A stretch of 63,300 nt of DNA from Minisyncoccota bacterium (lineage in GTDB: Bacteria > Patescibacteriota > Minisyncoccia > Phycocordibacterales > SBAW01): NCBI GenBank assembly GCA_018060985.1, contig JAGOUZ010000005.1:1-63300 (forward strand), given 5' to 3'. Positions 544 through 55,982 of this stretch are shown piece after piece. Numbering within the stretch: position 1 is the first letter of the stretch; every line of letters begins with the position of its first letter. The position numbers and the translations under genes are program-made. Under the pieces are notes generated by a model. That model was not told where the DNA came from. It made no database searches and was given only the letters and a program-made list of their open reading frames with translations.

Positions 544-630
544 ATGAAAAAGCTTCTCAAGCTTTGGCAAAACCTTTGCGAAATTCCCCTGGAGTTTCGC
601 AGGTTCAAAGAAAATAACTGGCTTCGCTAA
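544..630 (+). CDS. 28-aa micro-ORF MKKLLKLWQNLCEIPLEFRRFKENNWLR (not in ORF track)
   Basis: AGGAG at 530-534, 9 nt before ATG 544; TAA at 628-630; CATAAT at 512-517; followed by a strong hairpin at 645-671. Confidence 0.45.
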   Translation: MKKLLKLWQNLCEIPLEFRRFKENNWLR

Positions 631-644
631 GGCCAGATACAATA

Positions 645-671
645 AGGCCCCGCACGTTACGTGCGGGGCCT
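645..671. terminator. 12-bp perfect hairpin between convergent genes, probable intrinsic terminator
   Basis: AGGCCCCGCACG-TTA-CGTGCGGGGCCT; U-tracts are weak. Confidence 0.65.
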
Positions 672-680
672 ACTTCTATT

Positions 681-1304
681 TCATGTCGCGGCTAGAGGCT
701 GCCGGCGCCTAGCCCCCGACAGTTCTTCGCTGATGATTGCGTCGAGTCGCAGACGTCGCATGTCGTGGCTTAACTTGCCGCCGAATATTGACCACATCAG
801 AGAAAGGGTGGCGACTAGTGTGACAGCTCCGCCGATGAGCGTGATGGGCCAACGCTCGCCCAGAAATACCAACCCACTGCCAGCGCATATGAGCAATGCT
901 GTCTTGAAGATGTAAGCATTTCCCAGTTGATTCATCTGGGCGATTGGCGTCCACTCAGTATTGTTCTTATCCGCCATCTGATAGAGGAGTGGGTTGTTCT
1001 CCGGCGAAGAAAAGTGCGTGCAGGGGATCACTCGGCCGGACTCGCTCACCGCCAGTACATAGAACACGTTCGAACGTTCGTCCGGGGCGGTGTAGAGCCG
1101 AATCTCCGTGTACTGCTTGTCGGTGTTGCAGTACGTGAGGCCGGCGATCACTGCCTCGAACTTCGACGGCCCAAGGAGTATGAGTTCGGGGATACCCCCA
1201 CCGCGGGAGTCTTTGGTGTAGAACGTCTGGCAGTTGAGATGCTTCATCGCCAAGAGCGCGATGTCGCCTATGTCTTGGCTAAGAGATGCAAAGGTCACCC
1301 GCAT
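681..1304 (-). CDS. hypothetical membrane protein, two C-terminal TM helices
   Basis: 207-aa ORF; GAGGG SD-like sequence upstream; hydrophobic TALLICAGSGLVFLG and ITLIGGAVTLVATLSLMWSIF; has its own promoter and terminator. Confidence 0.7.
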   Translation of the reverse strand: MRVTFASLSQDIGDIALLAMKHLNCQTFYTKDSRGGGIPELILLGPSKFEAVIAGLTYCNTDKQYTEIRLYTAPDERSNVFYVLAVSESGRVIPCTHFSSPENNPLLYQMADKNNTEWTPIAQMNQLGNAYIFKTALLICAGSGLVFLGERWPITLIGGAVTLVATLSLMWSIFGGKLSHDMRRLRLDAIISEELSGARRRQPLAAT

Positions 1305-1352
1305 GTCTAAACCCTCTTTATGATGGAGAGATTCTCCGTTGCGTCTTATTGC

Positions 1353-1380
1353 ACGATACAGTGGAAACTTATTTTGTCAA
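1353..1380 (-). promoter_or_regulatory. sigma70-type promoter for 681-1304
   Basis: Minus strand TTGACA-N16-TATCGT. Confidence 0.6.
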
Positions 1381-1386
1381 ACAAAA

Positions 1387-1413
1387 CACCGCCCCAACTA
1401 GATCGGGGCGGTG
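1387..1413 (-). terminator. intrinsic terminator
   Basis: CACCGCCCC/GGGGCGGTG stem followed on the minus strand by TTTTGTTT. Confidence 0.7.
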
Positions 1414-1420
1414 GGGAAGG

Positions 1421-1861
1421 TTATGATTGGCCTCCGGGTCGCATAAAACAGTAGATCGTACCTTTTTCTGAGTAGGCCCCATAGGAGTCAGCGCTCGAAT
1501 CTCTTTGCTCCGGCGGCACATACACAGGCGCACATACATGAGCGAGCTCTGTCATGCTGGTGCCGTCAAGTATTTTATTTTTAGGGACCTGCACCCACTC
1601 GCCATCGAGAATGACCCACCACTCGCCATTTCTATAATCAGCTTTGGTCGGACGGCAATCCTCGTTGCTGCAGCATCCGATCTCGGGAGAGTCCGGCTGC
1701 ATCCATTCTTCGTAATTTTCACCACCCGATAGGTGTCCGCTCGCATGCAGGTATCCGTGATCGCCCAGACGCTCCTCTGCCTGCACGGGTGCAGCATTGC
1801 TTACCATGAAAAGCAGAACTGCCGCGGCAAGCAGAGCAAACGCCGCTATAATTTTTTGCAT
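1421..1861 (-). CDS. secreted Cys/His-rich hypothetical protein
   Basis: Start moved to ATG 1861 (MQKIIAAF), which has AAGGAG upstream; signal peptide ending PVQA; motifs GCCSNEDCRP, AHVC and IYCF. Confidence 0.75.
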   Translation of the reverse strand: MQKIIAAFALLAAAVLLFMVSNAAPVQAEERLGDHGYLHASGHLSGGENYEEWMQPDSPEIGCCSNEDCRPTKADYRNGEWWVILDGEWVQVPKNKILDGTSMTELAHVCAPVYVPPEQRDSSADSYGAYSEKGTIYCFMRPGGQS

Positions 1862-1940
1862 ATCAGTTCTCCTTGTTGAACGTCTAAATTGCACCATACT
1901 GCGCAAAAAGAATGCCGTCAATTACTTTTTAAAAAGAAAT

Positions 1941-1964
1941 GCCGCCCCGGTAGGTTGGGGCGGC
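1941..1964 (-). terminator. intrinsic terminator
   Basis: GCCGCCCC/GGGGCGGC stem followed on the minus strand by ATTTCTTTTT. Confidence 0.7.
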
Positions 1965-1977
1965 GTGAGAAGGGAAG

Positions 1978-2622
1978 TCACTCGTGGCTGCCGTCGGCGG
2001 CGATAGAAACGAGCTGGTAGCAGTTGCTGCTGTAGTAGCCGCCATCCGTCTTCATCTTGAGGGCATTGTCGTATGCCTCGGAATACGAACCCGCAGCGGC
2101 AACCGCGATACCATCGTATTCCGTTGTAGAGGTTTCTTGGTCGCACTTTACCGCAACGATCCATTGAACGCCGGTATTGTTGGAAAATCCGGCGATCGTA
2201 ACGCACTTGTTCGGATAGTTGGATTTACTGTGGCACATACCTTGTGCAACGTTGTACGCATCGATGCCGGAGGTTCTGTTCCACGTTGCACCATAGCCCG
2301 CATCGACCGAAGCGCTGATTGCCCCCCACTTCATGCTTGTAGGGATGGGCAGTTCGATCAAATAATCGGCCTCTTCCTGCGTCAGGACACCGGTCACAGC
2401 GTGTTCGATGTTCTTCTGGAACTTCGCAATAGCCGTACGGGTATTGGGGCCGATCTTACCGTCTGGAAGTCCAACCACCGGATAACCCAATTCAAACAGT
2501 GTGAACTGGATTGAATAGATGTCGTCGGTTGAAAGGATTGCTTCAGAAGCAGATGCGGGCGGCGTGATGTTGAAAAAGAACATCAGAGTGAACAGAACGA
2601 GCCATGTACGGATCGCAGTCAT
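1978..2622 (-). CDS. secreted peptidoglycan-binding (PG_binding_1-like) plus DUF4189-like domain protein
   Basis: Signal peptide ending ASA; IQFTLFELGY...PDGKIGPNTRTAIAKFQ...TG-L is the PG-binding helix motif; WGAISA...A...C...C followed by a second A...AL...C repeat resembles DUF4189; AAGGAGG SD. Confidence 0.75.
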   Translation of the reverse strand: MTAIRTWLVLFTLMFFFNITPPASASEAILSTDDIYSIQFTLFELGYPVVGLPDGKIGPNTRTAIAKFQKNIEHAVTGVLTQEEADYLIELPIPTSMKWGAISASVDAGYGATWNRTSGIDAYNVAQGMCHSKSNYPNKCVTIAGFSNNTGVQWIVAVKCDQETSTTEYDGIAVAAAGSYSEAYDNALKMKTDGGYYSSNCYQLVSIAADGSHE

Positions 2623-2713
2623 CGGGTCCCTCCTTGGGCCTAGGTTGACTTGGCATTACATAACAAAAATTTTAAGAATAAGTCAACTGTGTTGTTGACT
2701 CACATACACAACA

Positions 2714-2779
2714 AGTTCCACAGTATTTTATAAACAGGTTATTAGACGTTTTCCACCAGTTACCCACAGGTTATCCCTA
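2714..2779 (+). repeat. approximately 11-bp-phased array of degenerate DnaA-box-like 9-mers
   Basis: AGTTCCACA 2714, TTATAAACA 2728, TTTTCCACC 2749, TTACCCACA 2760, TTATCCCTA 2771; each has 1-2 mismatches to TTWTNCACA and all are in one orientation. Confidence 0.35.
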
Positions 2780-2796
2780 GTGTTCTCCCCGGAATT

Positions 2797-3091
2797 ACCT
2801 ACACTTCGAAGTAGGTGCATCAGTCAGCGTGTTAGCGTATCGGCATCGCAACAAGTTTTCGTAAGAAAATTTTTTTGCGAGGTGAGTTCATTTTCCGGTT
2901 TTCAGAATAGATTAGTCATGGTGCAAAAACTCTTAGCCGCGCAAGGTGCGGAACCTTCTATAGTAGAAGGAATTTTTGCGTTGTAAGAGGTGAGTGCTGC
3001 TCAAGTGTTTTGGAAGCTATTGAAGAATGGTCTTCAGATAACTTTCAGGATACTTAGCGGCACTATAGAGGCACAGGGAAAAGGGCCGCTA
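2797..3091 (+). promoter_or_regulatory. putative structured 5' leader of the SipW/TasA-like operon
   Basis: Hairpins at 2797-2816, 2846-2880 (GTAA loop), 2923-2979 (three-way junction), 3012-3046 and 3055-3091; GAGGTGAGT repeated at 2879 and 2987. Confidence 0.45.
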
Positions 3092-3164
3092 GTGTGCGCA
3101 GACGATTATTAGCAGAGAACAGATTATTAGTGGGCGATTAAACGTAATTATTAAAAAGCAGAAT

Positions 3165-4343: not shown

Positions 4344-4349
4344 TCTCTC

Positions 4350-4426
4350 CTAGCCGTTCACAGTCTCACTTCGGTGGGGCCGTGCGGGCTGGTAGGGAAT
4401 CCCAGTAGTAGAGCAGAGCTCTCTAC
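4350..4426 (+). other. intercistronic RNA hairpins
   Basis: GTCTCAC-TTCG-GTGGGGC (C-UUCG-G loop) extended by CTAGCC/GGCTGG; second stem GTAGAG/CTCTAC at 4408-4426. Confidence 0.55.
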
Positions 4427-4493
4427 GGGACACATGCTCCAGCGTCGTTGGGCAAATTACTAAGTTCACTTTATAAGTTTCCGAATTACAAAA

Positions 4494-15231: not shown

Positions 15232-15242
15232 TAACAAGTAGA

Positions 15243-15343
15243 GCTAAAATGTTTTTAAGAAAATAGTCTGGCCCGCGAGGCCGCCCCAAAGAGGGCGGCG
15301 CGAGACGGGAGATCCGAGGACTTTTTCGAGAAAATATTTTAGC
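15243..15343. repeat. about 100-nt imperfect palindrome between atpD and atpC
   Basis: GCTAAAATGTTTTT (15243-56) pairs with GAAAATATTTTAGC (15330-43); inner GAAAA-AGTC/GAC-TTTTTC and GCCGCCC/GGGCGGC stems. Confidence 0.65.
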
Positions 15344-15351
15344 GGCACACC

Positions 15352-15582
15352 ATGAAAGTAGTAATTGCAAAAGTTGATGAAAATTTGTACGACGGCGAAG
15401 CCGAGTCTTTGACCGTGCCCGGCGCAGCGGGGGAGATGACGGTTCTTGGCGAGCACATGCCGATTGTTACCACGCTTAAGGCAGGGACTATTACTGTGCG
15501 CGGGAGTGATGGCGAAAAAACTTTTGATATTACAGGCGGCGTCCTCGAAGTCCGCCGCGACGGCGCAACAGTGATTTTGTAA
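15352..15582 (+). CDS. atpC: F1 epsilon subunit, beta-sandwich domain only (76 aa)
   Basis: VPG-AGEMTVLGEH-P; GGVLEV; ends before the C-terminal helices. Confidence 0.92.
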   Translation: MKVVIAKVDENLYDGEAESLTVPGAAGEMTVLGEHMPIVTTLKAGTITVRGSDGEKTFDITGGVLEVRRDGATVIL

Positions 15583-15638
15583 CATTGCGCTCCCGCTTTT
15601 TGTTTACATAACTAGACCCACCAATAAAGGGCTCACTT

Positions 15639-15875
15639 ATGCCGTACGGTATGGTAGATGTCGTTAAACTTTGTAATTGGTGGGAAAATGAACTTCAGTC
15701 TGTCCCGCCGGAACTCGCCACTGATTTGCTGACTCTCCGCACAAAATACAATGGACAGGAAGTGCCGACTCGGGCCGACCAAATACCGGATGATGTCGCT
15801 ACAGTTCTGTGCCAGTGCATAAGACTCTGGTTCAAACAGCATCCGTATGGGGGAGTGCTGCATATACAGTTATAG
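15639..15875 (+). CDS. 78-aa hypothetical protein
   Basis: Fills the atpC-tRNA gap; AAAGGG upstream; terminator immediately after. Confidence 0.55.
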   Translation: MPYGMVDVVKLCNWWENELQSVPPELATDLLTLRTKYNGQEVPTRADQIPDDVATVLCQCIRLWFKQHPYGGVLHIQL

Positions 15876-15878
15876 AGA

Positions 15879-15909
15879 GGCCCCGCACTCGCGCGGGGCC
15901 GTTTCTTTT
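15879..15909 (+). terminator. intrinsic terminator
   Basis: GGCCCCGC/GCGGGGCC stem followed by GTTTCTTTT. Confidence 0.7.
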
Positions 15910-15929: not shown

Positions 15930-16002
15930 GGGCCTGTAGCTCACTTGGTAGAGCGCTTCCATGGCATGGAAGAGGCAAGGGGTTCGAATCCCCTCAGGTC
16001 CA
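15930..16002 (+). tRNA. tRNA-Ala (anticodon GGC), CCA not encoded
   Basis: GGGCCTG/CAGGTCC acceptor stem with G3:U70; D-arm AGCTCACTTGGTAGAGC; anticodon stem CTTCC/GGAAG with loop ATGGCAT; T-loop GGTTCGAATCC. Confidence 0.97.
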
Positions 16003-16043
16003 CTTTAATTAAGTTTGGATTTGTTTACGAGTTCCTTGAGGGC

Positions 16044-16079: not shown

Positions 16080-17975
16080 ATGAAGTTAAATCGTGTAGAG
16101 ATAAAGAACTTTCGGTCGATAAAGGACAGTACTGTCACTTTCGACCCTTCTTGTCGGGTGCTAGTAGGGATCAACGAGTCGGGAAAAACAAACGTCCTTA
16201 AGGCCCTCAGGCTTTTAACTGGTAAGTACAAATCGTCAAAAGTAAACGACGTGAGAGAGAGGGTGGGGAGGGAAAAAGCGGTTACAGAGGCCTATGTACG
16301 GTTCATTTTTCGCTTGGAGAAACCGGACTCCGATTCAGTATTTAAGCATGCCTCAGCCATTGTTTTATCGAACGAAGCAGACCCTGAGATTGTGGTGGCT
16401 GGTACTGAGAAGATATCGCTAAGCGCCTTCTGCTCAAAGCGCAATGAGGGTCTTTATACAATAAATATTAGAGAACAGACTCGGCAAGCTCAGTACTGGA
16501 CTTTGAGTTCCGCTCACAAATTAGTGCCTGGGTGGAAGACTCCAAGTGCTGCTTGTCCGGAGGATTATTCGGTTGAGGTTGAAGGGGAGAATAAGAAGCT
16601 AAAGACGTTCCGACTGGTTCGCGCGGCTGACTTTCCAGATATCCCAAAGGAGTATCTGGAAGGCGTCACTATAGAGCCTCTTTCTGCAAACGTCGGAGGT
16701 ACCATTACCGGCCTTGTTGATAGTCAGCTCCCCGAAGTTGTGTTTTGGGAGTACGACGAAAATGACTTGTTGCCTAATACAGTCGAAATAGCCGCTTTTG
16801 CGGCAAATCCTGACTCATGCGTCCCGCTAAAGCACATGTTTGTCCTCGCAGGCATAGAGGAAGACAACATTAAAGAGACTATAGAAGGGGAGCTTAAAGG
16901 TACGCCCAACCAAATTCAAAACTTTTTGGACCAAATTGCTGAACAAACTACCGCGCATTTTCGAGAAGTGTGGGAAGAGTACCGCGACGTCTCTTTCTCT
17001 CTGCGCCTCAATGCGAACAACATGGTGCCGGGCGTAAAGGAAGCCAACACGCATGACTTCGATAAAAGAAGCGACGGCTTCAAGCGTTTTGTCACCTTCC
17101 TCCTGATGATCTCGGTAAAGGTAAAAACGGATCAGATGAAAAACTCCCTCCTGCTCATTGACGAGCCGGAGATAGGTCTCCACCCATCTGGAGCTCGCTA
17201 CCTACGTAACGAGCTGATTAAGATCGCAAAACAAAACTACGTTGTTTATAGTACCCACTCGATTTTTATGATCGATTCTGGTGATATTGCTCGACACTAT
17301 ATTGTCAAAAAGAAGGGGGAGATCACCACCCTCGAGGCTGCACAGGCTTCAAACATTGCAGAAGAGGAGGTGCTGTGGAACGCGCTCGGTTACTCGGCCT
17401 TTGAGGTTCTTAAGGAAAAGAACCTTATTTTTGAGGGGTGGAAAGATAAGTATCTGTTTCAGGTTGCCTTAGCGGCGGCATCCGATACGCTTAAGCGAAA
17501 GTTTGTAAACGTTGGTATATGTCATGGCAAGGGCGCTAGCTCTATTAAGGCCATAACCCCAATTATAGCGCTGGCACGACGTGACTGTATTATCGTGAGT
17601 GATGCTGATGCGCCAGCTCTTTCTGAACAGAAGCGCTACAAAGCTGACAAGGGTTACGGTACCTGGCTTACCTATAATGAAGTAGATACAAGTGTATCTG
17701 CGTTAACGGGAGAAGACTTTGTGAAAAAAGATTTCGTTGTCACAACGGTTAATAGTGTCCTTGCAGGGTCAAACATGCCGCAGTTTACCGAGACTGACCT
17801 TCCAAGCGACAACGGAAAACTTGCGGCCATTTCTACCTGGCTTACTACGAACGGCATGAGCCAAGAGCAAGCAAAGACACAGCTTGTCGCCATAAAAGAA
17901 AGTATTTTCGAGGACCTCGAAGCAAAAAATATAGAGGCCGAGTATACGAAACTCTTGAAGGGAATAAAGTTGTAA
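16080..17975 (+). CDS. OLD-family ABC-type ATPase fused to TOPRIM nuclease
   Basis: IKNFRSI; Walker A GINESGKT; signature-like RSDGFKR; Walker B LLIDEPEIGLHP; STHS; TOPRIM LIFEGWKD, HGKG, IVSDAD, TGEDF. Confidence 0.85.
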   Translation: MKLNRVEIKNFRSIKDSTVTFDPSCRVLVGINESGKTNVLKALRLLTGKYKSSKVNDVRERVGREKAVTEAYVRFIFRLEKPDSDSVFKHASAIVLSNEADPEIVVAGTEKISLSAFCSKRNEGLYTINIREQTRQAQYWTLSSAHKLVPGWKTPSAACPEDYSVEVEGENKKLKTFRLVRAADFPDIPKEYLEGVTIEPLSANVGGTITGLVDSQLPEVVFWEYDENDLLPNTVEIAAFAANPDSCVPLKHMFVLAGIEEDNIKETIEGELKGTPNQIQNFLDQIAEQTTAHFREVWEEYRDVSFSLRLNANNMVPGVKEANTHDFDKRSDGFKRFVTFLLMISVKVKTDQMKNSLLLIDEPEIGLHPSGARYLRNELIKIAKQNYVVYSTHSIFMIDSGDIARHYIVKKKGEITTLEAAQASNIAEEEVLWNALGYSAFEVLKEKNLIFEGWKDKYLFQVALAAASDTLKRKFVNVGICHGKGASSIKAITPIIALARRDCIIVSDADAPALSEQKRYKADKGYGTWLTYNEVDTSVSALTGEDFVKKDFVVTTVNSVLAGSNMPQFTETDLPSDNGKLAAISTWLTTNGMSQEQAKTQLVAIKESIFEDLEAKNIEAEYTKLLKGIKL

Positions 17976-17994
17976 TTTAATCTCCAAACTCCTT

Positions 17995-18810
17995 ATGAGC
18001 GACGTCCAGATAAAAGATAAGGCTTTGTATGCCGTGGCACTCATGGCAGCCTTTTTGGCCTTCAGCACTTTTAAGACGGAAATGAGTGCTATGTTTGTTC
18101 CTATAGGTTCATTTTCCTTCAGCCTTCTAAGCATCATGCTCTTTTTCGTCTTTCTCCTAACCCTTGCAGTGTATCTTTATGGTCTTGAGTATGTGAGATA
18201 TAGCTTCCCAAAGTATCAAAACTTCTTCTTGTTCAGGATGATAGTACCGGCTGCAAATTTTGTATACACCGTTGCAATAACTTTTCCGCTCCTAGTGTTT
18301 GTCATGTGGCTCATTTCTATCACCCCTCTCTATGCTTTGGCTAAAGAGCACACTTTCTGGGTGACGGTCTTTGATACCTTGGCTATCCTTGTCGCTCTCA
18401 TCGCGGGTGTATTTAACAGCTATTCCCTAAAGAGACAGACTTTGCGAAAGCACACTGAGATTATAGAACAGTTGCGCGGTAACTCGTTGCGGACCGCATT
18501 TAGCTTGTTTAAAAGCAAGCTCTATTCCGTGAGCATTTTTGAAGCCTATCGTGCTTTGGAGGCTCTGCTAAAAGAGATACTGCTGGAAAAAAAGGGTTTT
18601 ACTACCGAGCGACTGGATAGACAAGCCATTATAGACATGGCTATAAGGGAAGAGGTTATAGAATCAAAATTCATTCCAATTCTTAAGGAAATTAAGATTC
18701 AGAGGAACGCTGCGGTTCATGGATCGGAGGAGCGCACGGAGGAAGAAGCGAGAAATGTGCTTAATGCAGTAAAAAGCATCATCGAACACTATGCTCCCAC
18801 TGGTGAATGA
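17995..18810 (+). CDS. 4-TM membrane protein with C-terminal HEPN (DUF4145-like) domain
   Basis: Four hydrophobic segments in aa ~10-145; EAYRALEALLKE helix; Rx4H motif RNAAVH at 18703-18720. Confidence 0.75.
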   Translation: MSDVQIKDKALYAVALMAAFLAFSTFKTEMSAMFVPIGSFSFSLLSIMLFFVFLLTLAVYLYGLEYVRYSFPKYQNFFLFRMIVPAANFVYTVAITFPLLVFVMWLISITPLYALAKEHTFWVTVFDTLAILVALIAGVFNSYSLKRQTLRKHTEIIEQLRGNSLRTAFSLFKSKLYSVSIFEAYRALEALLKEILLEKKGFTTERLDRQAIIDMAIREEVIESKFIPILKEIKIQRNAAVHGSEERTEEEARNVLNAVKSIIEHYAPTGE

Positions 18811-26012: not shown

Positions 26013-26046
26013 AAGCGCTGCGGTCCCTGGGGGACACACAGCGCTT
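26013..26046. terminator. hairpin between convergent ychF and micro-ORF
   Basis: AAGCGCTG/CAGCGCTT with inner GTCCC/GGGAC; the A-run upstream gives a minus-strand U-tract. Confidence 0.6.
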
Positions 26047-26060: not shown

Positions 26061-26174
26061 CTAGCTGTTGACGATGATGCCGCCGCCGATGAAAAAGATC
26101 GCCCCCATGATGCACCAGGCCATCACCCGGTTGACCATCTGCTTCGTCTCGTCTTTCGCGGTGCTGCTGCTCAC
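26061..26174 (-). CDS. 37-aa single-TM micro-protein MSSSTAKDETKQMVNRVMAWCIMGAIFFIGGGIIVNS (not in ORF track)
   Basis: GTG start with TAGGAG SD 8 nt upstream; TAG stop; own promoter and terminator. Confidence 0.65.
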   Translation of the reverse strand: MSSSTAKDETKQMVNRVMAWCIMGAIFFIGGGIIVNS

Positions 26175-26210: not shown

Positions 26211-26240
26211 ATCATAACATACATATAGTGTATCTGTCAA
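26211..26240 (-). promoter_or_regulatory. sigma70-type promoter for the 37-aa ORF
   Basis: Minus strand TTGACA-N18-TATGAT with extended TGn. Confidence 0.65.
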
Positions 26241-40617: not shown

Positions 40618-40710
40618 AGATGTATACACCTTACAGGTTTTTAATGGCTGGCGCTAGAAAATCTTGGGTGTATTATGCCCGCAGGCAGTAAATGTGAGCG
40701 AGGTGCTACC

Positions 40711-40995
40711 ATGATCGATCTTGATGCGGTGTGCCTCAACACATTTGGGGACGCTGCACGTAATTGGGACTTTATGAGGAAGATTCGGAACGTTTTGCAG
40801 GTCCAAAAGATGGATCCGGTCCAAAGTGTCCGACGGTTACGCTACGAAGTAATGGAAGTCGTCGGCGGCAACCCTATCAAGACAATCCACATCGGACGAA
40901 CGCCTACAGGTGTTGCAGCAGTCGAACGACCCACTCTTCCCACGGGCACAGTGCTCAAATTGGTTCCGATCAACCGTGGCGACAATGCCTCCTAG
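40711..40995 (+). CDS. 94-aa hypothetical protein
   Basis: GAGGTG SD six nt before ATG 40711; TG-TATTAT upstream; own terminator. Confidence 0.6.
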   Translation: MIDLDAVCLNTFGDAARNWDFMRKIRNVLQVQKMDPVQSVRRLRYEVMEVVGGNPIKTIHIGRTPTGVAAVERPTLPTGTVLKLVPINRGDNAS

Positions 40996-41018: not shown

Positions 41019-41053
41019 AGGCCGCGCAGAATATCGCGCGGCCTTTTCTTTTT
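41019..41053 (+). terminator. intrinsic terminator
   Basis: AGGCCGCGC/GCGCGGCCT followed by TTTCTTTTT. Confidence 0.75.
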
Positions 41054-41079
41054 GTCAAAAAAACGCTACTTTTATTGCA

Positions 41080-43023
41080 ATGACCCTCAACGAGGTGCGC
41101 GAGAAATATTTGGCCTTTTTTCAGGCTCAGGGACATACGGTACTACCAAGCTCTAGCTTGGTGCCCGAGAACGACCCTACAACACTTTTTACGGGATCTG
41201 GTATGCAGCCGCTCGTGCCGTACTTGCTGGGCAAGAATCATCCGGCCGGGACGCGCCTGGTAGACAGCCAGAAGTGTTTCCGTTCAATGGATATAGAAGA
41301 GGTGGGGGATAATCGCCACACGACCTTCTTTGAGATGCTTGGTAACTGGTCACTCGGCGACTACTTTAAACAAGAGCAACTTCCGTGGTTTTTTGAATTC
41401 CTCGTTGGCCAGGTAGGGCTAGATCCGAACAAGCTGTACGTCACTACATTTATTGGCGATGAAAATAATAACGTACCCCGCGACACCGAGTCGGCAGAAA
41501 TTTGGAAGCGGCTGTTTGATGAACAGGGGATAGATAACAAGGTAGTGGATATCGGGAGCGAGGAAAACGGCTACCAGGTGGGAATGCAGGGTGGACGCAT
41601 CTTTTACTACGATGCAAAGAAAAACTGGTGGTCCCGCGCAGGAGTGCCGGAAAAGATGCCTGCAGGAGAGCCGGGCGGTCCAGACTCAGAGGTATTTTAT
41701 GACTTTGGTACACCGCACGACCCTAAGTGGGGTCCGGAGTGCCACCCTAACTGCGACTGTGGCCGCTTCCTCGAGATCGGCAACTCTGTCTTTATGCAGT
41801 ACATCAAAAAAGAAGATGGTTCTTTTGCTTTGCTACCTAAACAAAATGTGGACTTTGGTGGTGGTCTTGAACGCATTGCCGCTGTATTAAGAAATGAGTC
41901 AGATGTTTTTAATATTGATGTATTTGATAAAGCTAAAGAAGTGATATTCAGCTTGTGTGGAACTCCTTACTACGACGAAGGGAATCCGAACGGCTTTGTG
42001 GTTGCAAAAAGTGGAGGAATGTTTCCCTCTGAAATGAGATACATGTATCGCGTGATACTTGATCATATTAGAGCCGCAACTTTTTTGATCGGGGATAGTG
42101 TACTACCCAATAATAAAGATCAGGGATACTTCGTCCGCCGCCTCATACGGCGAGCGGTTAGATTTGGTCATAAATTAGGAATAGATTCAAATTTTACCGC
42201 GCAAGTTGCCAAAACCTTTATAGATACATATGAAAATTCTTATCCAGAACTTAAAAAACGTGCTGAGACTATTCAAAATGAGTTAACAAAAGAAGAAGAG
42301 AAATTTCGGGAAACTCTTGCTCGTGGAATTAAAGAACTGGAGCGCTTTACTGGAGATGCCGTTTTTGATAAAAACGGCTTAACTGCTCAGTATATATTTC
42401 AGCTGGTGACGACCTACGGCTTCCCACTCGAGCTTATTTTAGAAGAGGCGGGAGAGAAGGGTATCAAACAGATAGATATAGAGGGTTTTAAAGACCTGCT
42501 TAAACAGCATCAAGACCTTTCTCGTGCAGGTTCTGAACAAAAGTTCAAAGGCGGTTTAGCTGACACGTCTGAGAAGACTACGCGCCTGCACACCGCACAC
42601 CACTTACTCCTTAAGGCACTCCAGCAGGTGTTGGGACCAGAGGTACACCAGCGCGGCAGCAATATCACCCAAGAGCGTTTACGCATCGACTTTAGCTGGG
42701 GGGCAAAGATGACTGATGGGCAGAAAAAAGAGGTAGAGAAAATAGTAAACGAAAAGATTAACGAAGACTTGCCGGTAGTTCGTACCGAAATGGCTAAAGA
42801 AGAGGCCGAGAAGCTTGGTGCAGAGCACGAGTTTGGCGCCAAATACCCTGACAAAGTATCTGTTTATTCCGTCGGGCCGCTCGATAGCGCATTTTCTATA
42901 GAGTTTTGTGGCGGGCCGCATGTGGAGCACACAGGAGAAATTTCAAAGTCGGGTATGTTCAAAATCCAGAAAGAAGAAGCGGTTGCACAAGGGGTTCGTA
43001 GAATCAAAGCAGTGCTTCAGTGA
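41080..43023 (+). CDS. alaS: alanine--tRNA ligase, C-Ala domain absent (647 aa)
   Basis: DPTTLFTGSGM, HTTFFEMLGN, EIGNSVFMQY, DFGGGLER; editing motifs HTAHHLL and CGGPH. Confidence 0.97.
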   Translation: MTLNEVREKYLAFFQAQGHTVLPSSSLVPENDPTTLFTGSGMQPLVPYLLGKNHPAGTRLVDSQKCFRSMDIEEVGDNRHTTFFEMLGNWSLGDYFKQEQLPWFFEFLVGQVGLDPNKLYVTTFIGDENNNVPRDTESAEIWKRLFDEQGIDNKVVDIGSEENGYQVGMQGGRIFYYDAKKNWWSRAGVPEKMPAGEPGGPDSEVFYDFGTPHDPKWGPECHPNCDCGRFLEIGNSVFMQYIKKEDGSFALLPKQNVDFGGGLERIAAVLRNESDVFNIDVFDKAKEVIFSLCGTPYYDEGNPNGFVVAKSGGMFPSEMRYMYRVILDHIRAATFLIGDSVLPNNKDQGYFVRRLIRRAVRFGHKLGIDSNFTAQVAKTFIDTYENSYPELKKRAETIQNELTKEEEKFRETLARGIKELERFTGDAVFDKNGLTAQYIFQLVTTYGFPLELILEEAGEKGIKQIDIEGFKDLLKQHQDLSRAGSEQKFKGGLADTSEKTTRLHTAHHLLLKALQQVLGPEVHQRGSNITQERLRIDFSWGAKMTDGQKKEVEKIVNEKINEDLPVVRTEMAKEEAEKLGAEHEFGAKYPDKVSVYSVGPLDSAFSIEFCGGPHVEHTGEISKSGMFKIQKEEAVAQGVRRIKAVLQ

Positions 43024-43066: not shown

Positions 43067-43252
43067 ATGCCTGATCTTGGTCTCAAATACCTTATGGAAG
43101 TCATAAGGGGGAGGCGTCCGCAGCCAAAGCCTCGGCCAGAGTTGCGGGCTGTCTATGTATCAGTTGCGGCAACGGCTCGCCTGCAACCAGACCGTATGGT
43201 CGATCATATTCTGAATCGCATCAAGAAAGAAAACGCGCTACCCACCAAGTAA
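43067..43252 (+). CDS. 61-aa basic hypothetical protein
   Basis: AAGGAG SD; TGA-TATACT upstream; start ATG 43067. Confidence 0.55.
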   Translation: MPDLGLKYLMEVIRGRRPQPKPRPELRAVYVSVAATARLQPDRMVDHILNRIKKENALPTK

Positions 43253-43338
43253 TCTTGACAGAAAAATAAATAGTGGGAGTATTACGACGAACGGCGTTCT
43301 TTCGTTCAAATATGTTTTCTCGAGACGGAGGGAGACTA

Positions 43339-43425
43339 ATGACCAAGTCCATTCCTGGCTTCTGGCTGCACGCGGGTCTCGTCGTGATCCTCCTGATTGC
43401 TGGCTTCGGCCAGCACTTGATCTAG
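43339..43425 (+). CDS. 28-aa hydrophobic micro-protein MTKSIPGFWLHAGLVVILLIAGFGQHLI (not in ORF track)
   Basis: GGAGGGAG SD; TTGACA at 43255-60; TAG stop; terminator follows. Confidence 0.6.
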   Translation: MTKSIPGFWLHAGLVVILLIAGFGQHLI

Positions 43426-43439: not shown

Positions 43440-43476
43440 GCCCGGACGCACTTTGCGCCCGGGCCTTTTTATTTTC
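43440..43476 (+). terminator. intrinsic terminator
   Basis: GCCCGG/CCGGGC stem followed by CTTTTTTATTTT. Confidence 0.7.
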
Positions 43477-43492
43477 GTTGTATACTTTTGTC

Positions 43493-44488
43493 ATGTCCGC
43501 GCTCTTTAAGCGTAAAAAGGAAGAGGGGAATACGGTACTTCTCCTCGATGTAGAGAACGGCAGCGTGGGTTCTGCGCTCGTTCGGCTTTCTCCGCATGAA
43601 GCGCCGCGTCTTTTTGGTGAGACGCGGGTGCAAATTCCACTTCTTAAAACACATGCACCGGGATCAATCACTAAAGAGATAGAGCAGGCCGCTCGCCATG
43701 CCCTTGACCATGTGGCGCAAGTTGCCGCTCGGGTGCGTGTGCATTCATCAGAGTCTGTGGGCACGGTTGCCCACACGGCGGTGTTTATGTCGCCGCCATG
43801 GGCAACGCTAAATCTTGGCTATGACACTGTCCCGCACCCGATTACGCAAAGTATCTATAATTCGCTAGTTACGTTACTTGGGCCGGCAGTATCAACCTCG
43901 TTCCATCCATTTGCTACAGCCACGGCCCACATGGTTCCCTCACTTTTTCCACACGAAGAGCGCTACCTGCTGTGTGTCGTAAGCGGGGAAGTAATGGAAA
44001 TGATCGCGCTTGAACGTTCGGAGTGGGACAGCCAGGTGCTTGGCCATGCAACGATCCCATTTGGACGCAACTCGATTATGCGGACGCTTAAGGCCCATGG
44101 CGGATTAAGTGTGGGTGAGGCACTGTCAGCTCTTAAGCTTGTCCGGCACGGGCATATGTCGCCCATGCATGAGCCGCTTACATCGCTCGCTGTGCACATT
44201 GGGGCAGAGTTTGATGAAGTAGCGCGCGAACTGGCAACAGGCGGCACGTTGCGCTCGGTGTTCGTTGTAGCAGAGGAGCCCGTAGGCGAGTGGTTTGCTC
44301 GTTCGCTTGCGGATCATGCGTCGCTAGAAACTCTGTTTCCAGAAGGTGGTACGGTGCGCGCAGTGCGGGGAAGTCATATTTCCCCTTTTATTGCGATACA
44401 CGCACATAAGCCGGACATAGCGTTATTATTGGAGGCCCTGTTTATAGATGCCAGGCTGCCCAAAGCTAAAGTCGAGGCAATTAGATAA
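43493..44488 (+). CDS. degenerate actin-like (FtsA/PilM-like) fold hypothetical protein
   Basis: LLDVENGSVGSALV resembles the phosphate-1 motif; IPFGRN-I resembles FtsA. Confidence 0.5.
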   Translation: MSALFKRKKEEGNTVLLLDVENGSVGSALVRLSPHEAPRLFGETRVQIPLLKTHAPGSITKEIEQAARHALDHVAQVAARVRVHSSESVGTVAHTAVFMSPPWATLNLGYDTVPHPITQSIYNSLVTLLGPAVSTSFHPFATATAHMVPSLFPHEERYLLCVVSGEVMEMIALERSEWDSQVLGHATIPFGRNSIMRTLKAHGGLSVGEALSALKLVRHGHMSPMHEPLTSLAVHIGAEFDEVARELATGGTLRSVFVVAEEPVGEWFARSLADHASLETLFPEGGTVRAVRGSHISPFIAIHAHKPDIALLLEALFIDARLPKAKVEAIR

Positions 44489-49748: not shown

Positions 49749-49754
49749 AGAAGA

Positions 49755-49775
49755 ACCGCCGCAAGGCGGTTTTTT
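49755..49775 (+). terminator. terminator of the ribosomal operon
   Basis: ACCGCC-GCAA-GGCGGT followed by TTTTT. Confidence 0.85.
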
Positions 49776-49776
49776 C

Positions 49777-49804
49777 TTGATTTAATTTAAAAATCTGCTA
49801 TAAT
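49777..49804 (+). promoter_or_regulatory. grpE promoter (leaderless geometry)
   Basis: TTGATT-N16-TATAAT with TGn; ATG seven nt downstream. Confidence 0.65.
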
Positions 49805-49811
49805 ACGCGCC

Positions 49812-50327
49812 ATGTCGGACGATAACTTTGAAGAAGAGTTCGTCCCCGAAGAGGAGGCCGAACAAGGACCCGCACTTATCAAGCGTTTGCGTGATCGTCT
49901 TAAGAAGGCAACAGAGGAGCGGCAAGAATATTTAGAAGGATGGCAGCGCTCGAGGGCCGACTTTGCCAACTTTAAGCGCGAAGAGGCGCTTATGAACGAG
50001 CACAAAGAGGTTCGTGTCAAAGCCGGCTTAGTAGAGGACCTCATTCCTGTCTTAGATTCGTTTGAAATGATGCTTAAACACGCTCAGACGAAAGAAATGA
50101 ACTTGGTTCATAAACAATTTCTTGATGCACTTCGTAAAATGGATATCCTCTACTACGGCAAAAAGGGGGACACCTTTGATCCGTATAAATATGAAGCGCT
50201 ACGCGAAGTGGCGGTAGAAACTCCAGAAGACGATCAAAAAGTTGTATCGGTTGAACGCAGTGGGTATAGTATTGGCGAACATATTATTAGACCCGCCCAA
50301 GTAACAGTGGGCGCATATCAGAAATAA
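49812..50327 (+). CDS. grpE: nucleotide exchange factor GrpE
   Basis: QR-RADF-NFKR, FDPY-YEAL, GY-IG---IRPA-V-V. Confidence 0.95.
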
Positions 50328-50341
50328 TCTATAACTATTGT

Positions 50342-52234: not shown

Positions 52235-52251
52235 AGGTGAAGGATTCAGTC

Positions 52252-52278
52252 TGCGGGGTTTACACACCCCGCATTTCT
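52252..52278 (+). terminator. hairpin between dnaK and dnaJ (partial terminator)
   Basis: TGCGGGG/CCCCGCA followed by TTTCT. Confidence 0.55.
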
Positions 52279-52300
52279 GATAGACTGATCAACATAAATT

Positions 52301-53392
52301 ATGGCTACTAAACGAGACTATTACGAAGTGCTAGGCGTGCAAAAAGGCGCGTCAAAAGACGAAATAAAAAAAGCATTTCACAAGCTCGCACACAAACTCC
52401 ACCCCGACAAAGGCACCGGTGATGCAGAAAAATTTAAAGAAGTTTCTGAGGCGTACTCAATCTTGAGTGACGACAAACGTCGCGCGGAGTACGACAGCTA
52501 CGGACGCGTATTTGGCGGCGGTGCACAGCAGCCAGGAGCCGGCTTTGGCGGGCAGGGAAGTAACTTCGACTTTTCGCAATTCCAAGATGCGTTCCAAAAC
52601 GGGTTTGGCTTTGACTTTAGTGATGTATTTAGCGACTTCTTTAGCGGCAATGCACAGGGCACTCGCGCGCGCCGTGGCCGCGACATCTCTATCGACCTTG
52701 AAATCAGCTTTAAAGACTCGGTCTTTGGCACCAAGCGCACAGTACTCCTTGCCAAAACAGCGCAGTGCGAAACCTGCAAAGGCTCGGGCGCCGCTCCTAA
52801 AAGCGAGCTTATAACCTGTACGCACTGCAACGGCGCTGGCAAAGTGCACGAAACCTCGCAATCATTCTTTGGCGCTATTACCATGGTGCAGCAGTGTCGC
52901 TACTGCCGTGGCTCTGGCAAAGTACCTAAAGAAAAGTGTCCGACCTGCCGTGGTGATGGTGTCTATAAGAAACAAGAGGAGATCGAGATTACCGTACCAG
53001 CGGGTATTGAAGGCGGCGAGATGATCCGTCTTACGAGCGCTGGCGAAGCCGTCTCCGGAGGCCAGTCGGGCGACCTCTATGTAAAAATCCACGTCACCCC
53101 AGACCCACGCTTTAAGAAAGAGGGGGTAAACCTTGTAACTGATCTTTCAGTAAAACTTTCAGATGCACTTCTTGGCGCAGAATACACACTCCAAACACTT
53201 GAGGGAGAAGAAAAGGTGTCAGTGCCGCAGGGCGTTAGCCATGGTGAGGTACTCCATGTGCGCGGCAGAGGCGTACCACAAGGCAAAGGCCGCCGCGGCG
53301 ACCTCCTCATAAAGGTCAAAATAACTCTACCTAACAAACTCTCCCGCAGTGCAAAAGGGCTGGTAGAAAAATTGAGAGAAGAGGGAATATAG
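52301..53392 (+). CDS. dnaJ: chaperone DnaJ
   Basis: J domain with HPD, G/F-rich region, four CxxCxGxG repeats. Confidence 0.98.
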
Positions 53393-53407
53393 GCTACTAT
53401 ATCCCTC

Positions 53408-54343
53408 ATGAAGCGCTTACTTACTGGCCTACAACCATCTGGCCAGCTGCATATTGGCAACTACTTTGGCGCGCTTAAACCGTTTGCCGATACCTACCAA
53501 GACTACGAAAGTTTTTTGATGGTCGCCGACTATCACTCACTCACGAGCCTTAAAGACCCTAAAGCACTCCGCGAAAATATTATAGAAATAGTGCGCGGCT
53601 ACTTGGCCGCTGGAGTAGACCCGGAGAAAGCAGTAATCTTTAAACAATCTGATGTGCAGGAGCACACCGAACTTGCGTGGATATTTGAGTGTTTGGTAAC
53701 GGTACCATTTCTTGAACTATCGCACGCATATAAAGACAAGCTAGCAAAAGGACTTGAGGCAAATGCCGGCCTCTTTAACTACCCGATGCTTATGGCGGCA
53801 GATATCTTGCTGTACGACACTGAAGTGGTGCCGGTAGGGAAAGACCAGCAACAGCATGTGGAATATGCACGCGAAGCGGCTAACAAATTTAATAATGCGT
53901 ACGGCCAAACTTTTAAAGAACCGGAAGCCAAGATTTTGGAAACAGTAGCAACTGTGCCTGGTGTTGATGGCCAAAAGATGAGCAAGAGTTACAAAAATAC
54001 GATCCCGCTCTTTGGCTCTAAAGACGATATTGCTAAAGCCGTGATGAGTATTGTTACCGACTCTTCGGGAGATAGGCCGGCTAACGTGTACTCTATCCAC
54101 CAACTCTTTAAGACCGATGCAGAACTTGCACCGGTGTACGAGCAAAACAAAGGGAGCTACAAGGCACTTAAAGAAGCTTTGATTGCTGATATTGAAGCCA
54201 TGGTTGTACCGATGCGGGACAAGTATGACTCTATTTCAGAACAAGAAGTTAAGGATGTGTTAGCCAAAGGCGCGGAGCGTGCAAAAGCAATCGCATCTGC
54301 TAAGATGGCCGACGTACGCAAGAAGGTAGGCGTATCTATTTAA
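53408..54343 (+). CDS. trpS: tryptophan--tRNA ligase
   Basis: QPSG-LHIGNY, YPMLMAADILLY, VG-DQ-QH, KMSKS. Confidence 0.98.
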   Translation: MKRLLTGLQPSGQLHIGNYFGALKPFADTYQDYESFLMVADYHSLTSLKDPKALRENIIEIVRGYLAAGVDPEKAVIFKQSDVQEHTELAWIFECLVTVPFLELSHAYKDKLAKGLEANAGLFNYPMLMAADILLYDTEVVPVGKDQQQHVEYAREAANKFNNAYGQTFKEPEAKILETVATVPGVDGQKMSKSYKNTIPLFGSKDDIAKAVMSIVTDSSGDRPANVYSIHQLFKTDAELAPVYEQNKGSYKALKEALIADIEAMVVPMRDKYDSISEQEVKDVLAKGAERAKAIASAKMADVRKKVGVSI

Positions 54344-54347
54344 ATAT

Positions 54348-55664
54348 ATGGACCGGACATTAATTAAAGACTTGGGTGGCAAGGTGGGGGAGCGGGTCTT
54401 GATACAAGGCTCTGTTTCAGTGCGTCGCGACCAGGGCAAGATGGTGTTTTTTGACTTTCGCGACCGTTCGGGCGCGGTACAGGGCGTGGTGCTGCCAAAG
54501 AGCGAGGCGATAGAAAACGCTAAAGAAACTCGTGCTGAGTTTATTGTGAGCGTTGAAGGTACGGTTAATAAACGCCCAGAGAAAAATATTAACGCCGAGG
54601 TTCAAAACGGCGACATCGAGCTCGAGGTCCACACACTCGACATACTTTCTAAAGCAGAGATCCCGTTTGAACTTGGGTCTGATGTAAACCTCGACACTCA
54701 CCTAGACCATCTGCCGTTTACACTCCGCAGTGAGCGCTCAAAAAATATTTTTAAAGTACAGGCCACAATTGCAGAAGCCTTTCGTGAAGCAATGCGCCAA
54801 GAGGACTTTACTGAATTTCAGTCCCCATCACTTGTGGGCGGCGATGCCGAGGGAGGTGCAGCAGCCTTTAAGGTTGATTACTACTACGACCAGAAGGCCT
54901 TTCTTGCTACATCACCCCAACTCTACAAGCAGATGCTTGCAGGCGTCTTTGAGCGTGCGTTTACCGTTGCAAAGATCTTCAGGGGAGAGAAGCACGCAAC
55001 GACTCGCCACCTGAGCGAGGCCGTATGTATGGACTTCGAAATGGCGTTTGTTAAAGACCATACGGATGTGATGGATATGCTTGAGAAGACCATAAAACAC
55101 ATGGTCAACAAAGTAGATGAGAAGCATGGCGACGTCTTTGCTACATTTGCTACAGAGAAGCCGCTGGTGCCGGAGAAGATCCCGGTACTTAAACTCCGCG
55201 AGGCGCAGGAAATACTTGGTGTATCTACCGACGAGCCGGACCTTGAGCCAGAACATGAGAAAAAGTTGTGGGAGTGGGCAAAGAAGGAGCACAACAGCGA
55301 CTTTGTGTTTGTAACGCACTTTCCGCTAAGTAAGCGCCCGTTCTACACCTACGAAGATGAAAATGATAAGGGCTACACCAAATACTTTGACCTCCTCTTC
55401 CGCGGGCTCGAGATCAACTCGGGCGGCCAGCGCGTACATAACCATGACGAATTGGTTGAAAGAATTAAGGCCAAAGGCCTAGACCCAGAGAAGTTTAGCT
55501 TCTACCTAGAAGCCTTTAAAACCGGTATGCCTCCGCACGGCGGCTGCTCAACCGGTCTTGAGCGCATGACTGCCCGCATGCTCAACCTTCCTAACGTTAA
55601 AGAGGCAACACTCTTTCCCCGCGACCTCAACCGCATCGACACCCTCCTTTCGACTGATAAATAG
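54348..55664 (+). CDS. aspS: aspartate--tRNA ligase, short archaeal/eukaryote-type (probably non-discriminating)
   Basis: 438 aa without GAD insert; FLATSPQLYKQ, FRGEKH-TTRHL-E, LEI-SGGQR, GMPPHGG---GLER. Confidence 0.93.
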   Translation: MDRTLIKDLGGKVGERVLIQGSVSVRRDQGKMVFFDFRDRSGAVQGVVLPKSEAIENAKETRAEFIVSVEGTVNKRPEKNINAEVQNGDIELEVHTLDILSKAEIPFELGSDVNLDTHLDHLPFTLRSERSKNIFKVQATIAEAFREAMRQEDFTEFQSPSLVGGDAEGGAAAFKVDYYYDQKAFLATSPQLYKQMLAGVFERAFTVAKIFRGEKHATTRHLSEAVCMDFEMAFVKDHTDVMDMLEKTIKHMVNKVDEKHGDVFATFATEKPLVPEKIPVLKLREAQEILGVSTDEPDLEPEHEKKLWEWAKKEHNSDFVFVTHFPLSKRPFYTYEDENDKGYTKYFDLLFRGLEINSGGQRVHNHDELVERIKAKGLDPEKFSFYLEAFKTGMPPHGGCSTGLERMTARMLNLPNVKEATLFPRDLNRIDTLLSTDK

Positions 55665-55716
55665 TTTCGTGTTATAAGTTTTTTAGAGTATTCAACATAC
55701 GTAGCGAGGTGACGCC

Positions 55717-55953
55717 GTGGATGAAAAAACGGTAACCGGAACAATCGTCTCGACCTGCTGCGAGGGCGCGTGTGCGCATGTAAGGCTCGACGAGAAGGTG
55801 AACGGAAGGCAGTTTGCCATTATCGACGACCGCACGGCTGGCAGAAAACGTCTGATGAAGTCATCGGGCGGGAAGCTTGACCTCAACGCACGCATCACGG
55901 TCAAAGATACGACCGTTGTCGGTGCCGACATGGTGGTGACGCTGATCGAATAA
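55717..55953 (+). CDS. 78-aa hypothetical beta-rich (OB-like) protein
   Basis: GAGGTG SD before GTG start; CCxxxCxH cluster; own terminator. Confidence 0.6.
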   Translation: MDEKTVTGTIVSTCCEGACAHVRLDEKVNGRQFAIIDDRTAGRKRLMKSSGGKLDLNARITVKDTTVVGADMVVTLIE

Positions 55954-55959
55954 AGGGAG

Positions 55960-55982
55960 GGCCGCGGGAAACTGCGGCCTTT
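55960..55982 (+). terminator. intrinsic terminator
   Basis: GGCCGCGG-GAAA-CTGCGGCC followed by TTT. Confidence 0.7.

Follow-up and report, generated by a model that had tools for sequence, protein, structure and literature searches.

What are the very short open reading frames (ORFs) that stand by themselves between the housekeeping genes of a Minisyncoccota bacterium, and what process put them there? The question is raised by contig JAGOUZ010000005.1 of assembly GCA_018060985.1, which we call the window (the entire 63.3-kb contig C9 of the source genome G000, itself 722 kb in 12 contigs and 97.7% complete), and which carries the ATP synthase operon, ychF, alaS, an Asn/Asp-tRNA synthetase gene and a ribosomal protein cluster. 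A sequence-only reading had singled out seven such ORFs as self-contained expression units with a Shine-Dalgarno (SD) motif, attributing them either to a hidden small proteome or to a route of cassette insertion. Our analysis places the units of G000 in a real, genome-wide pool of stand-alone mini-genes that resemble phage morons and occupy variable slots, and not in a cassette-insertion system. The main oddity of the locus lies beyond that first reading, and it is the presence of a ribosome-binding-like motif where neither the core genes nor the 16S rRNA of the genome make use of such a signal.

All seven ORFs are open where they had been placed, with the correction that ORF3 lies on the minus strand, reading from a GTG at 26174. 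Their lengths are given in amino acids (aa), and the energies are those of an SD-like duplex with the canonical anti-SD; the 16S tail of G000 itself is non-CCUCC.

544..630, plus strand: ORF1, 28 aa, basic and amphipathic, SD-like duplex of -7.4 kcal/mol.
15639..15875, plus strand: ORF2, 78 aa, between atpC (15352-15582) and tRNA-Ala.
26061..26174, minus strand: ORF3, 37 aa, GTG start, hydrophobic C-terminal half, SD-like motif AGGAGA (-7.3 kcal/mol).
40711..40995, plus strand: ORF4, 94 aa, member of a small protein family.
43067..43252, plus strand: ORF5, 61 aa, basic, 43 nt past the alaS stop, SD-like motif AAGGAG (-8.7 kcal/mol).
43339..43425, plus strand: ORF6, 28 aa, one hydrophobic helix, SD-like motif GGAGGG (-10.0 kcal/mol, the strongest of the seven).
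55717..55953, plus strand: ORF7, 78 aa, GTG start, after the Asn/Asp-tRNA synthetase gene, coding score +12.2.

The first line of evidence is numerical. We counted in G000 the ORFs of at least 25 aa that lie in gaps of at least 90 nt and are preceded by an SD-like duplex of -7 kcal/mol or better, taking as core genes the calls of a 3-periodic Markov model trained on long genes (a simple in-house caller, not an established one) and dinucleotide shuffles as the random expectation. There are 141 of these SD-led gap ORFs against 73 +/- 6 in the shuffles, or about 70 extra, and the surplus is distributed by size in the following way.

25-39 aa: 52 observed, 43 +/- 8.5 in shuffles.
40-59 aa: 34 observed, 21.5 +/- 4.4 in shuffles.
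60-99 aa: 39 observed, 9.5 +/- 3.1 in shuffles (the class of ORF2, ORF4, ORF5 and ORF7).
100 aa or more: 16 observed, 1.8 in shuffles.

From 60 aa upwards, SD-led gap ORFs are thus 4-9 times as frequent as in shuffles, and a positional peak of GGAG/GAGG at -12 to -10 is confined to this part of the range. The idea that the units are commoner than chance holds for the 60-99 aa class and fails for the 25-39 aa class, to which ORF1, ORF3 and ORF6 belong. A hairpin with a T-run follows 63 of the 141 ORFs, and the 31 units of at least 50 aa that carry both SD and terminator have a G+C content of 0.558, rising to 0.658 at third codon positions (GC3), compared with 0.507 and 0.530 in 344 core genes. 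Related genomes show this excess too, over 116 loci (16 against 3.5 +/- 1.3 for 60-99 aa), and with it the proposed population of self-contained expression units is borne out at the level of the genus. We therefore regard it as likely that the small ORFs form a flexible pool of small, autonomous and lineage-specific genes, both genome- and genus-wide, and that they are not the parts of one system. Another gene set, anchored on terminators, was dropped since it chose rival frames for the micro-ORFs.

What makes this class peculiar is the translation apparatus of its host. Among 324 well-defined core starts, an SD of -7 kcal/mol occurs at 4.0%, against 3.5% of random positions, and G is depleted upstream of core starts from -12 to -6. 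A TANNNT box instead peaks at -12 (51 of the 324 starts, or about 28% when -13 and -14 are counted), as expected for leaderless first genes, and many core genes do appear leaderless from their upstream sequence (for example, window 41065-41082 and 43465-43496). The single 16S gene, a full-length, end-to-end match to the Rfam small-subunit rRNA model, ends in GGAUCAAUUCAAAU (C7:52096-52146), its tail reading AAUUCAAAU in place of the canonical CCUCC, a motif that is absent from the entire gene. Of 21 other 16S matches in the genus, 20 have the same or a near-identical non-CCUCC tail, which is AAUUCAAAU in most and AAUUCAAUG or AAUUCACAU in a few, with a variable spacer beyond it. The complement of this new tail shows no enrichment upstream of core genes. 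Ribosomal protein uL1 (PF00687), present in 14 of 14 control genomes, was not found in G000. The remaining one of the 21 matches lies on a short contig of a metagenome-assembled genome of the genus (G047:C81); its 16S end reads canonical CCUCCUU and its helix 45 differs, so that it probably comes from another organism as a contaminant.

The loss of the anti-SD is itself already published. A subgroup of Parcubacteria without anti-SD and uL1 was described by Tsurumaki et al. (2022, RNA 28:1041, PMC9297842), and the loss is understood as an end to the formation of SD helices in these organisms. G000, with neither CCUCC at its 16S 3' end nor a detectable uL1, is like them; the accessible portion of that paper reports the loss only, and neither a class of genes with SD-like motifs nor leaderless core genes. 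We found no paper in the literature linking anti-SD loss to an SD-bearing gene class.

Where, then, do the units sit, and are they really genes? Five of the six gaps holding the seven ORFs lie between conserved genes. The description of the ORFs as single items between core genes needs amending at two points, as ORF5 and ORF6 share one gap and ORF1 falls in a species-specific accessory stretch, since no homologue of its 207-aa neighbour, 681-1304(-), turned up in 40 genomes of the genus. About 30 same-genus genomes share the gene order M13 peptidase, alaS, 43478 gene, 44510 gene. The flanks of alaS measure about 450 nt on each side in G000 and 10-80 nt in most species; in a minority, for the most part the closest relatives, they span 200-1000 nt and hold other contents. 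Behind the Asn/Asp-tRNA synthetase gene and behind ychF, slot length varies between 0 and more than 1300 nt among same-genus genomes. The moron-type pattern of insertion, with 0-80 nt in most of these genomes against 270-450 nt in G000, is found for all of the units except ORF1; where the slots are not of this short kind, they extend over 250-1300 nt and are filled differently. Alignment with two related species, G050 (a sister species) and G001, gives 72-93% DNA similarity in the flanking genes, in the upstream region that is shared and in the terminators, and breaks off at the ORF bodies. The borders of the slots are thus shown to be conserved between sister species, while their contents were gained, lost, replaced or diverged beyond recognition at the DNA level. 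The differences in presence and absence between species are real, with slots either empty or otherwise filled. In a metagenome scan for strain-level relatives, the closest alanyl-tRNA synthetase (AlaRS) had 72% identity.

The core genes of these slots have peculiarities of their own. Identity to G050 is uneven, with 93-95% for the Asn/Asp-tRNA synthetase and YchF and 79% for AlaRS, and across the genus the Asn/Asp-tRNA synthetase shows anything from 51 to 93%; such unevenness may be a hint that some core genes were replaced or have paralogues. In many genomes of the genus, ychF gives two matching pieces (residues 1-150 and 152-320) inside one longer open frame, and alaS gives pieces 1-145 and 167-647, split matches that suggest lineage-specific insertions inside both genes.

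The signals that surround the ORFs within these borders are the following (promoters were read by eye from the upstream sequence, and the coordinates of the ORF3 and ORF6 promoters and of the ORF7 hairpin were obtained by counting).

645..671, either strand: perfect GC-rich palindromic hairpin, -25.3 kcal/mol, predicted two-way terminator for ORF1 and the convergent gene 681-1304(-).
15875..15904, plus strand: intrinsic terminator of ORF2, -20.1 kcal/mol, with T-run.
15930-16003: tRNA-Ala(GGC), beyond the ORF2 terminator.
About 26013-26046: hairpin common to ORF3 and the convergent ychF.
26211..26240, minus strand: ORF3 promoter TTGACA-N18-TATGAT, leader of about 30 nt.
40630..40710, plus strand: upstream region common to the M13 peptidase gene (minus strand) and ORF4, with a TATTAT -10 box and a GAGGTG SD-like motif.
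41019..41044, plus strand: intrinsic terminator of ORF4, 9-bp stem with 8 GC pairs and T-run, top match of the terminator scan.
43255..43285, plus strand: ORF6 promoter, TTGACA-type, 17-19 nt spacing to an AGTATT or TATTAC box.
43440..43464, plus strand: terminator closing the slot between alaS and the 43478 gene, -17.2 kcal/mol, followed by a -10 box and the start of that next core gene.
55959..55978, plus strand: terminator hairpin of ORF7, -17.8 to -19.7 kcal/mol, T-rich tail.

The G001 homologue of ORF2 occupies the corresponding position (45% identity over 73 aa, E 3e-18), and SD, ORF, terminator and tRNA-Ala follow one another there as in G000. Over about 120 nt, the segment 15884-16003 with hairpin, spacer and tRNA matches G001 at 92.6% identity, and the ORF2 body is unalignable. 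A -10-like box close to the ORF2 ATG suggests a short or absent leader. Upstream of ORF4, the region 40630..40710 is about 90% identical to G050 until some 20 nt before the start and divergent from there on, although a purine G-rich motif is kept in both genomes past the point of divergence; similarity resumes at 41020, with the terminator that stands just before the apparently leaderless alaS (41080). The G050 homologue of ORF4 occupies the same place and has almost the same length (93 versus 94 aa) and the same C-terminal motif, with only 25% identity. An exhaustive profile search of 1.84 billion proteins gave a family of six representatives of 89-94 aa, which is found in 2 of 80 genomes of the genus (G000 and G050); about 394 more genomes, drawn from elsewhere in the order, yielded no member. 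For ORF5, the homologue stands directly 3' of alaS in a third species, G021, and has a conserved 16-residue C-terminal motif in common with it; G000 and G021 are the only genomes in which this family was found. The homologue of ORF7 in G050 shares a Cys-x3-Cys motif (38% identity in a pairwise alignment) and lies in the same slot, although a 269-aa gene separates it there from the synthetase gene. Taken together, homologues that keep frame and length where the DNA no longer aligns show, at the level of sequence comparison, that ORF2, ORF4, ORF5 and ORF7 (61-94 aa) are protein-coding.

The three shortest ORFs fare differently. ORF3 has a GC3 of 0.95 (P 6e-7) and one hydrophobic helix, with no sure homologue (a doubtful relative in G050 gives E 0.17), and ORF6 has a GC3 of 0.83 (P 0.004) and no homologue that we could find; both are probably small membrane peptides, to judge from their predicted sequences. 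The slot between alaS and the 43478 gene, in which ORF6 lies, contains a different ORF of 243 aa in G050, and the hairpin, the T-run, the -10 box and the start of the 43478 gene are kept there in spite of the different content. ORF1 remains unproven as a gene: its coding score is -5.3 and its GC3 0.55, a rival 41-aa ORF (492-617) overlaps it, and neither a homologue nor any supporting signal beyond the motif was found. The hairpin behind it begins 10 nt past the stop of the minus-strand gene 681-1304, and since the hairpins of ORF1 and ORF3 are common to convergent larger genes, they are not independent evidence for either ORF. Most of the seven, and above all the three below 40 aa, could accordingly be chance frames in spacers made of promoters, terminators and perhaps small RNAs, as the numbers for the 25-39 aa class, its lack of a positional GGAG peak, the overlapping frame at ORF1 and the two shared hairpins would allow. 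Yet chance frames do not account for four ORFs with protein-level homologues, for the six-member family of ORF4 or for the deviant third positions of ORF3 and ORF6, and a search of the alaS and asnS gaps for RNAs gave no Rfam match at E up to 1, including T-box or other leader RNAs. We hence regard this explanation as decidedly unlikely for the set. The hidden small proteome that had been proposed is supported for four of the seven ORFs, and finds no class-level backing below 40 aa.

The same homologues bear on the meaning of the motif, which reaches -7.2 kcal/mol or better (GGAG-type) in six of the seven ORFs; the claim of a purine-rich SD on every one of them holds only weakly for ORF2, with -4.4. 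In four of four homologue pairs (ORF2, ORF4, ORF5 and ORF7) the G-rich motif 5' of the start is kept while the surrounding bases differ. This favours maintenance of the motif, although repeated import from SD-using donors would explain it too. Under the latter explanation, the motif would be a non-functional relic and the units recent imports from SD-reading donors (other bacteria, lineages of the candidate phyla radiation, or their phages), poorly translated here or translated by another route. We take this to be possible, if doubtful. The raised GC3 and a codon usage unlike that of core genes fit such an origin, as do the patchy spread of the ORF4 and ORF5 families and the occurrence elsewhere in G000 of one SD-led protein with a phage gp30.3 domain. 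ORF4 is also closer to two metagenome members of its family (41% and 36% identity) than to its same-place homologue in G050, which would fit replacement from outside as well as very fast divergence. On the other hand, no donor was found: searches among 5.8 billion proteins returned ORF2 and ORF7 themselves alone, the ESM Atlas gave no usable match for ORF7, viral contigs gave no relatives of the ORF5 family, of ORF7 or of the ORF4-family member P0009, and none of the seven ORFs matched a family in Pfam, PHROGs or PADLOC. Moreover, the excess of SD-led ORFs extends to many genomes of a genus whose 16S genes were found almost all without anti-SD, which argues for maintenance rather than decay.

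That the GGAG-type motif is a working translation signal despite the lost anti-SD tail is a suggestion we make tentatively, and with less conviction than the existence of the pool itself. If it works, another reader would be called for, such as a contact with another rRNA or a protein, or a trans-acting RNA, which would serve the leadered accessory mini-genes selectively, the core genome being translated without leaders.

In the gp30.3 case, the protein is encoded at C11:4448-5029 of G000, is SD-led, 194 aa long and followed by a terminator, and has a phage T4 gp30.3-like domain (PF08010, E 2e-26). At curated Pfam thresholds, 19 of the 20 SD-led proteins tested had no domain, and the exceptions in this test are that gp30.3-like protein and a 2-hydroxyacid dehydrogenase, plainly an enzyme of metabolism. 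The AF2 model of ORF4 (pLDDT 76) has two predicted helices and four strands and finds no significant match in the PDB, the best VIA-align Z of 4.5 being to unrelated folds; a RelE/ParE fold was considered for it, and several such chains matched, with only E about 1 and TM about 0.3, which is not significant. ORF7 (pLDDT 66) is predicted to be a five-strand OB-like barrel, with CspA as the best Foldseek match (TM 0.67/0.74, E 2e-3), a model that adds to the evidence for its being a gene.

A typical unit of the pool would be built as follows. It would lie at the border of transcription units, between conserved and syntenic housekeeping genes of this Parcubacteria (Adlerbacteria-like) bacterium, and start from a sigma-70-type promoter, continuing with a leader of 25-45 nt in which a GGAG-type purine motif stands a few bases before the start codon. 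Its ORF would be short, with raised third-position G+C and a codon usage unlike that of core genes, and a strong GC-rich intrinsic terminator would close and insulate it, so that the next core gene restarts from its own, apparently leaderless, promoter. The terminators agree well with this scheme and with what had been claimed, since a GC-rich hairpin with a T-rich tail follows six ORFs (ORF1, ORF2, ORF3, ORF4, ORF6 and ORF7), two of these hairpins being shared with convergent genes; ORF5 has only a weak one (43289-43307) and no strong terminator. Promoter elements, which had been ascribed to most of the units, are clear and of the TTGACA type for ORF3 and ORF6 and weaker for the others, and promoter-like sites show no enrichment as a class (18 against 13.9 +/- 4.0 in shuffles).

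Because every terminator of a unit stands just upstream of the next gene, and ORF4 directly precedes an aminoacyl-tRNA synthetase gene, one could also think of cis-regulatory leaders, with each ORF and hairpin acting as leader peptide and attenuator for alaS, the 43478 gene, the 55999 gene or tRNA-Ala. This we consider highly improbable: ORF4, unlike the peptide of an attenuator, is 94 aa long, belongs to a protein family and is not alanine-rich; the units are missing from most relatives that keep the downstream genes (ORF4 from 78 of the 80 genus genomes, which keep alaS); no T-box or other Rfam leader was found in the gaps; and the downstream genes have their own -10 box beside the start. 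A further possibility concerns only two of the seven ORFs. ORF3 and ORF6 (37 and 28 aa) each contain one hydrophobic helix, are preceded by a strong ribosome-binding-like motif, come with a promoter and a terminator of their own and are lineage-specific in distribution; in this they look like type I toxins, which would be held in check by an antisense RNA. Many other small membrane proteins look alike, however, no antisense promoter or RNA was identified in the sequence, and no homology to known toxin families came up in PADLOC or Pfam, so that we rate this identity as unlikely.

If the units are a pool of separate genes, is there a machine that inserts them? Mobile cassettes moved by a site-specific system of their own, whether like that of integrons or novel, would leave slots that are empty in most relatives and otherwise filled in others, and would share a uniform outer anatomy, as the units do. 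The rest of the evidence disagrees. The gap DNA is repeated neither elsewhere in G000 nor among the gaps, and the ORF bodies are not repeated either; no attC-like sites are shared among the gaps, the hairpins being plain GC stems with T-runs and no common core; and no protein family recurs among the ORFs of different slots and genomes or among the 141 SD-led ORFs of G000, save for one tandem pair. The only tyrosine recombinase of the genome (PF00589) lies on contig C4, away from the window, no match to reverse transcriptase (PF00078) was found in G000, and the units are dispersed and not arrayed, most of them with promoters. Without shared repeats, shared families or a linked recombinase, the cassette-insertion machine that had been envisaged has no support, and we give it very little credence. 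Variation driven by a retroelement, with the ORFs as targets of a diversity-generating retroelement, was likewise rejected, in view of the missing reverse transcriptase and of ORF bodies that are not repeated in G000. The contents of the slots would rather have arrived by ordinary horizontal transfer and recombination, or have arisen in place and diverged very fast, and neither route would imply a dedicated recombinase.

Among known systems, the closest parallel is that of phage morons, autonomous promoter-gene-terminator units found between conserved phage genes (PMC3594210). Our units are likewise single small genes, with their own promoter and terminator by sequence prediction (ORF5 has no strong terminator), wedged between genes that are adjacent in relatives, patchily distributed and deviating in base composition from their neighbours (GC3 of 0.66 in the 31 units against 0.53). 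Unlike morons, they reside in a bacterial chromosome, on the flanks of alaS, asnS, ychF and the ATP synthase operon, have no phage homologues and carry a ribosome-binding-like motif that cannot pair with the rRNA of the host. Integron gene cassettes, for their part, are also small and mostly orphan ORFs, each followed by an inverted repeat, and their content varies between relatives; the units of the window, in contrast to that system of IntI, attI and attC, have no attC core sites, shared repeat, integron integrase or array, and are scattered with their own promoters over at least six gaps of the contig. In the GeneMarkS-2 scheme, SD sites reportedly serve genes inside operons, in genomes with an intact anti-SD. 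In G000 the anti-SD is gone, and it is accessory genes standing alone that have SD-like sites. A likeness nevertheless exists with the mixed leaderless and SD-led genomes with 'atypical genes' as GeneMarkS-2 models them (PMC6028130), namely two start grammars and a minority of genes of deviant composition.

Several points weigh against the existence of such a pool of genes, or at least against the membership of some of the seven ORFs. The statistics depend on the gene calls of the simple in-house caller, and its coding model puts most of the seven near zero or below: only ORF7 is gene-like (+12.2), and the remaining six score from -7 to +3, which means that their composition is unlike that of core genes. 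Third-position G+C is clearly deviant only in ORF3, ORF6 and ORF7. The evidence for the seven ORFs is sequence-based throughout. At the size of ORF1, ORF3 and ORF6, SD-led ORFs are not in excess over the random expectation, the hairpins behind ORF1 and ORF3 can be put down to adjoining genes, and the promoters were called by eye, with a consensus scan that gave no enrichment. Finally, every homologue is limited to one other species, and ORF2 and ORF7 are without relatives in the large protein searches.

The surroundings of the units deserve some remarks. The accessory stretch 1-3164, where ORF1 lies, has a raised G+C content (0.554 over 1-2000), and a gene inside it at 1978-2622(-) gives a weak endolysin-like PHROG match. 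Window 1-263 is the reverse complement of contig C12:1-263, with 99% identity, and the two contigs therefore probably abut or share a repeat. The accessory stretch also holds one further member of the class, which the sequence-only reading had not listed.

1421..1861, minus strand: 146 aa, signal-peptide-like N-terminus, SD of -8.5 kcal/mol, terminator of -21.5 kcal/mol, promoter TTGACG-N17-TATGGT.

This protein has no Pfam or PHROG match. Close to ORF2, a 113-aa ORF at 15244-15585(-) was rejected as the antisense shadow of atpC (15352-15582). The atpC product itself is short (76 aa, beta-sandwich domain only), and between its gene and atpD lies a structured, GC-rich spacer of 120 nt (15232-15582 with atpC), a 29-nt piece of which is repeated on contig C11 and an 18-nt core of that piece on C3. 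Directly after tRNA-Ala(GGC), 16080-18810 encodes an OLD/AriA/GajA-like AAA-Toprim ATPase (631 aa) and then a 271-aa partner; the two probably serve together in defence against phages, at a hot spot formed by the tRNA.

For the annotation of these genomes, the consequence is a practical one. In the NCBI annotation, the ORF5 homologue of G021 begins at an internal start, an example of how callers trained on core genes will misplace or miss such genes. For the biology of the lineage, an anti-SD-less genome still has a distinct set of genes with well-placed SD-like motifs; these are small, stand-alone and fast-changing, with G+C-rich third positions, and the motif is kept in homologues that have otherwise diverged. 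If the motif works, two separate grammars of translation initiation would divide core from accessory genes, and these organisms would possess an undescribed component of translation initiation. If it does not, the units would trace an influx of genes into genomes usually thought to be streamlined and static.

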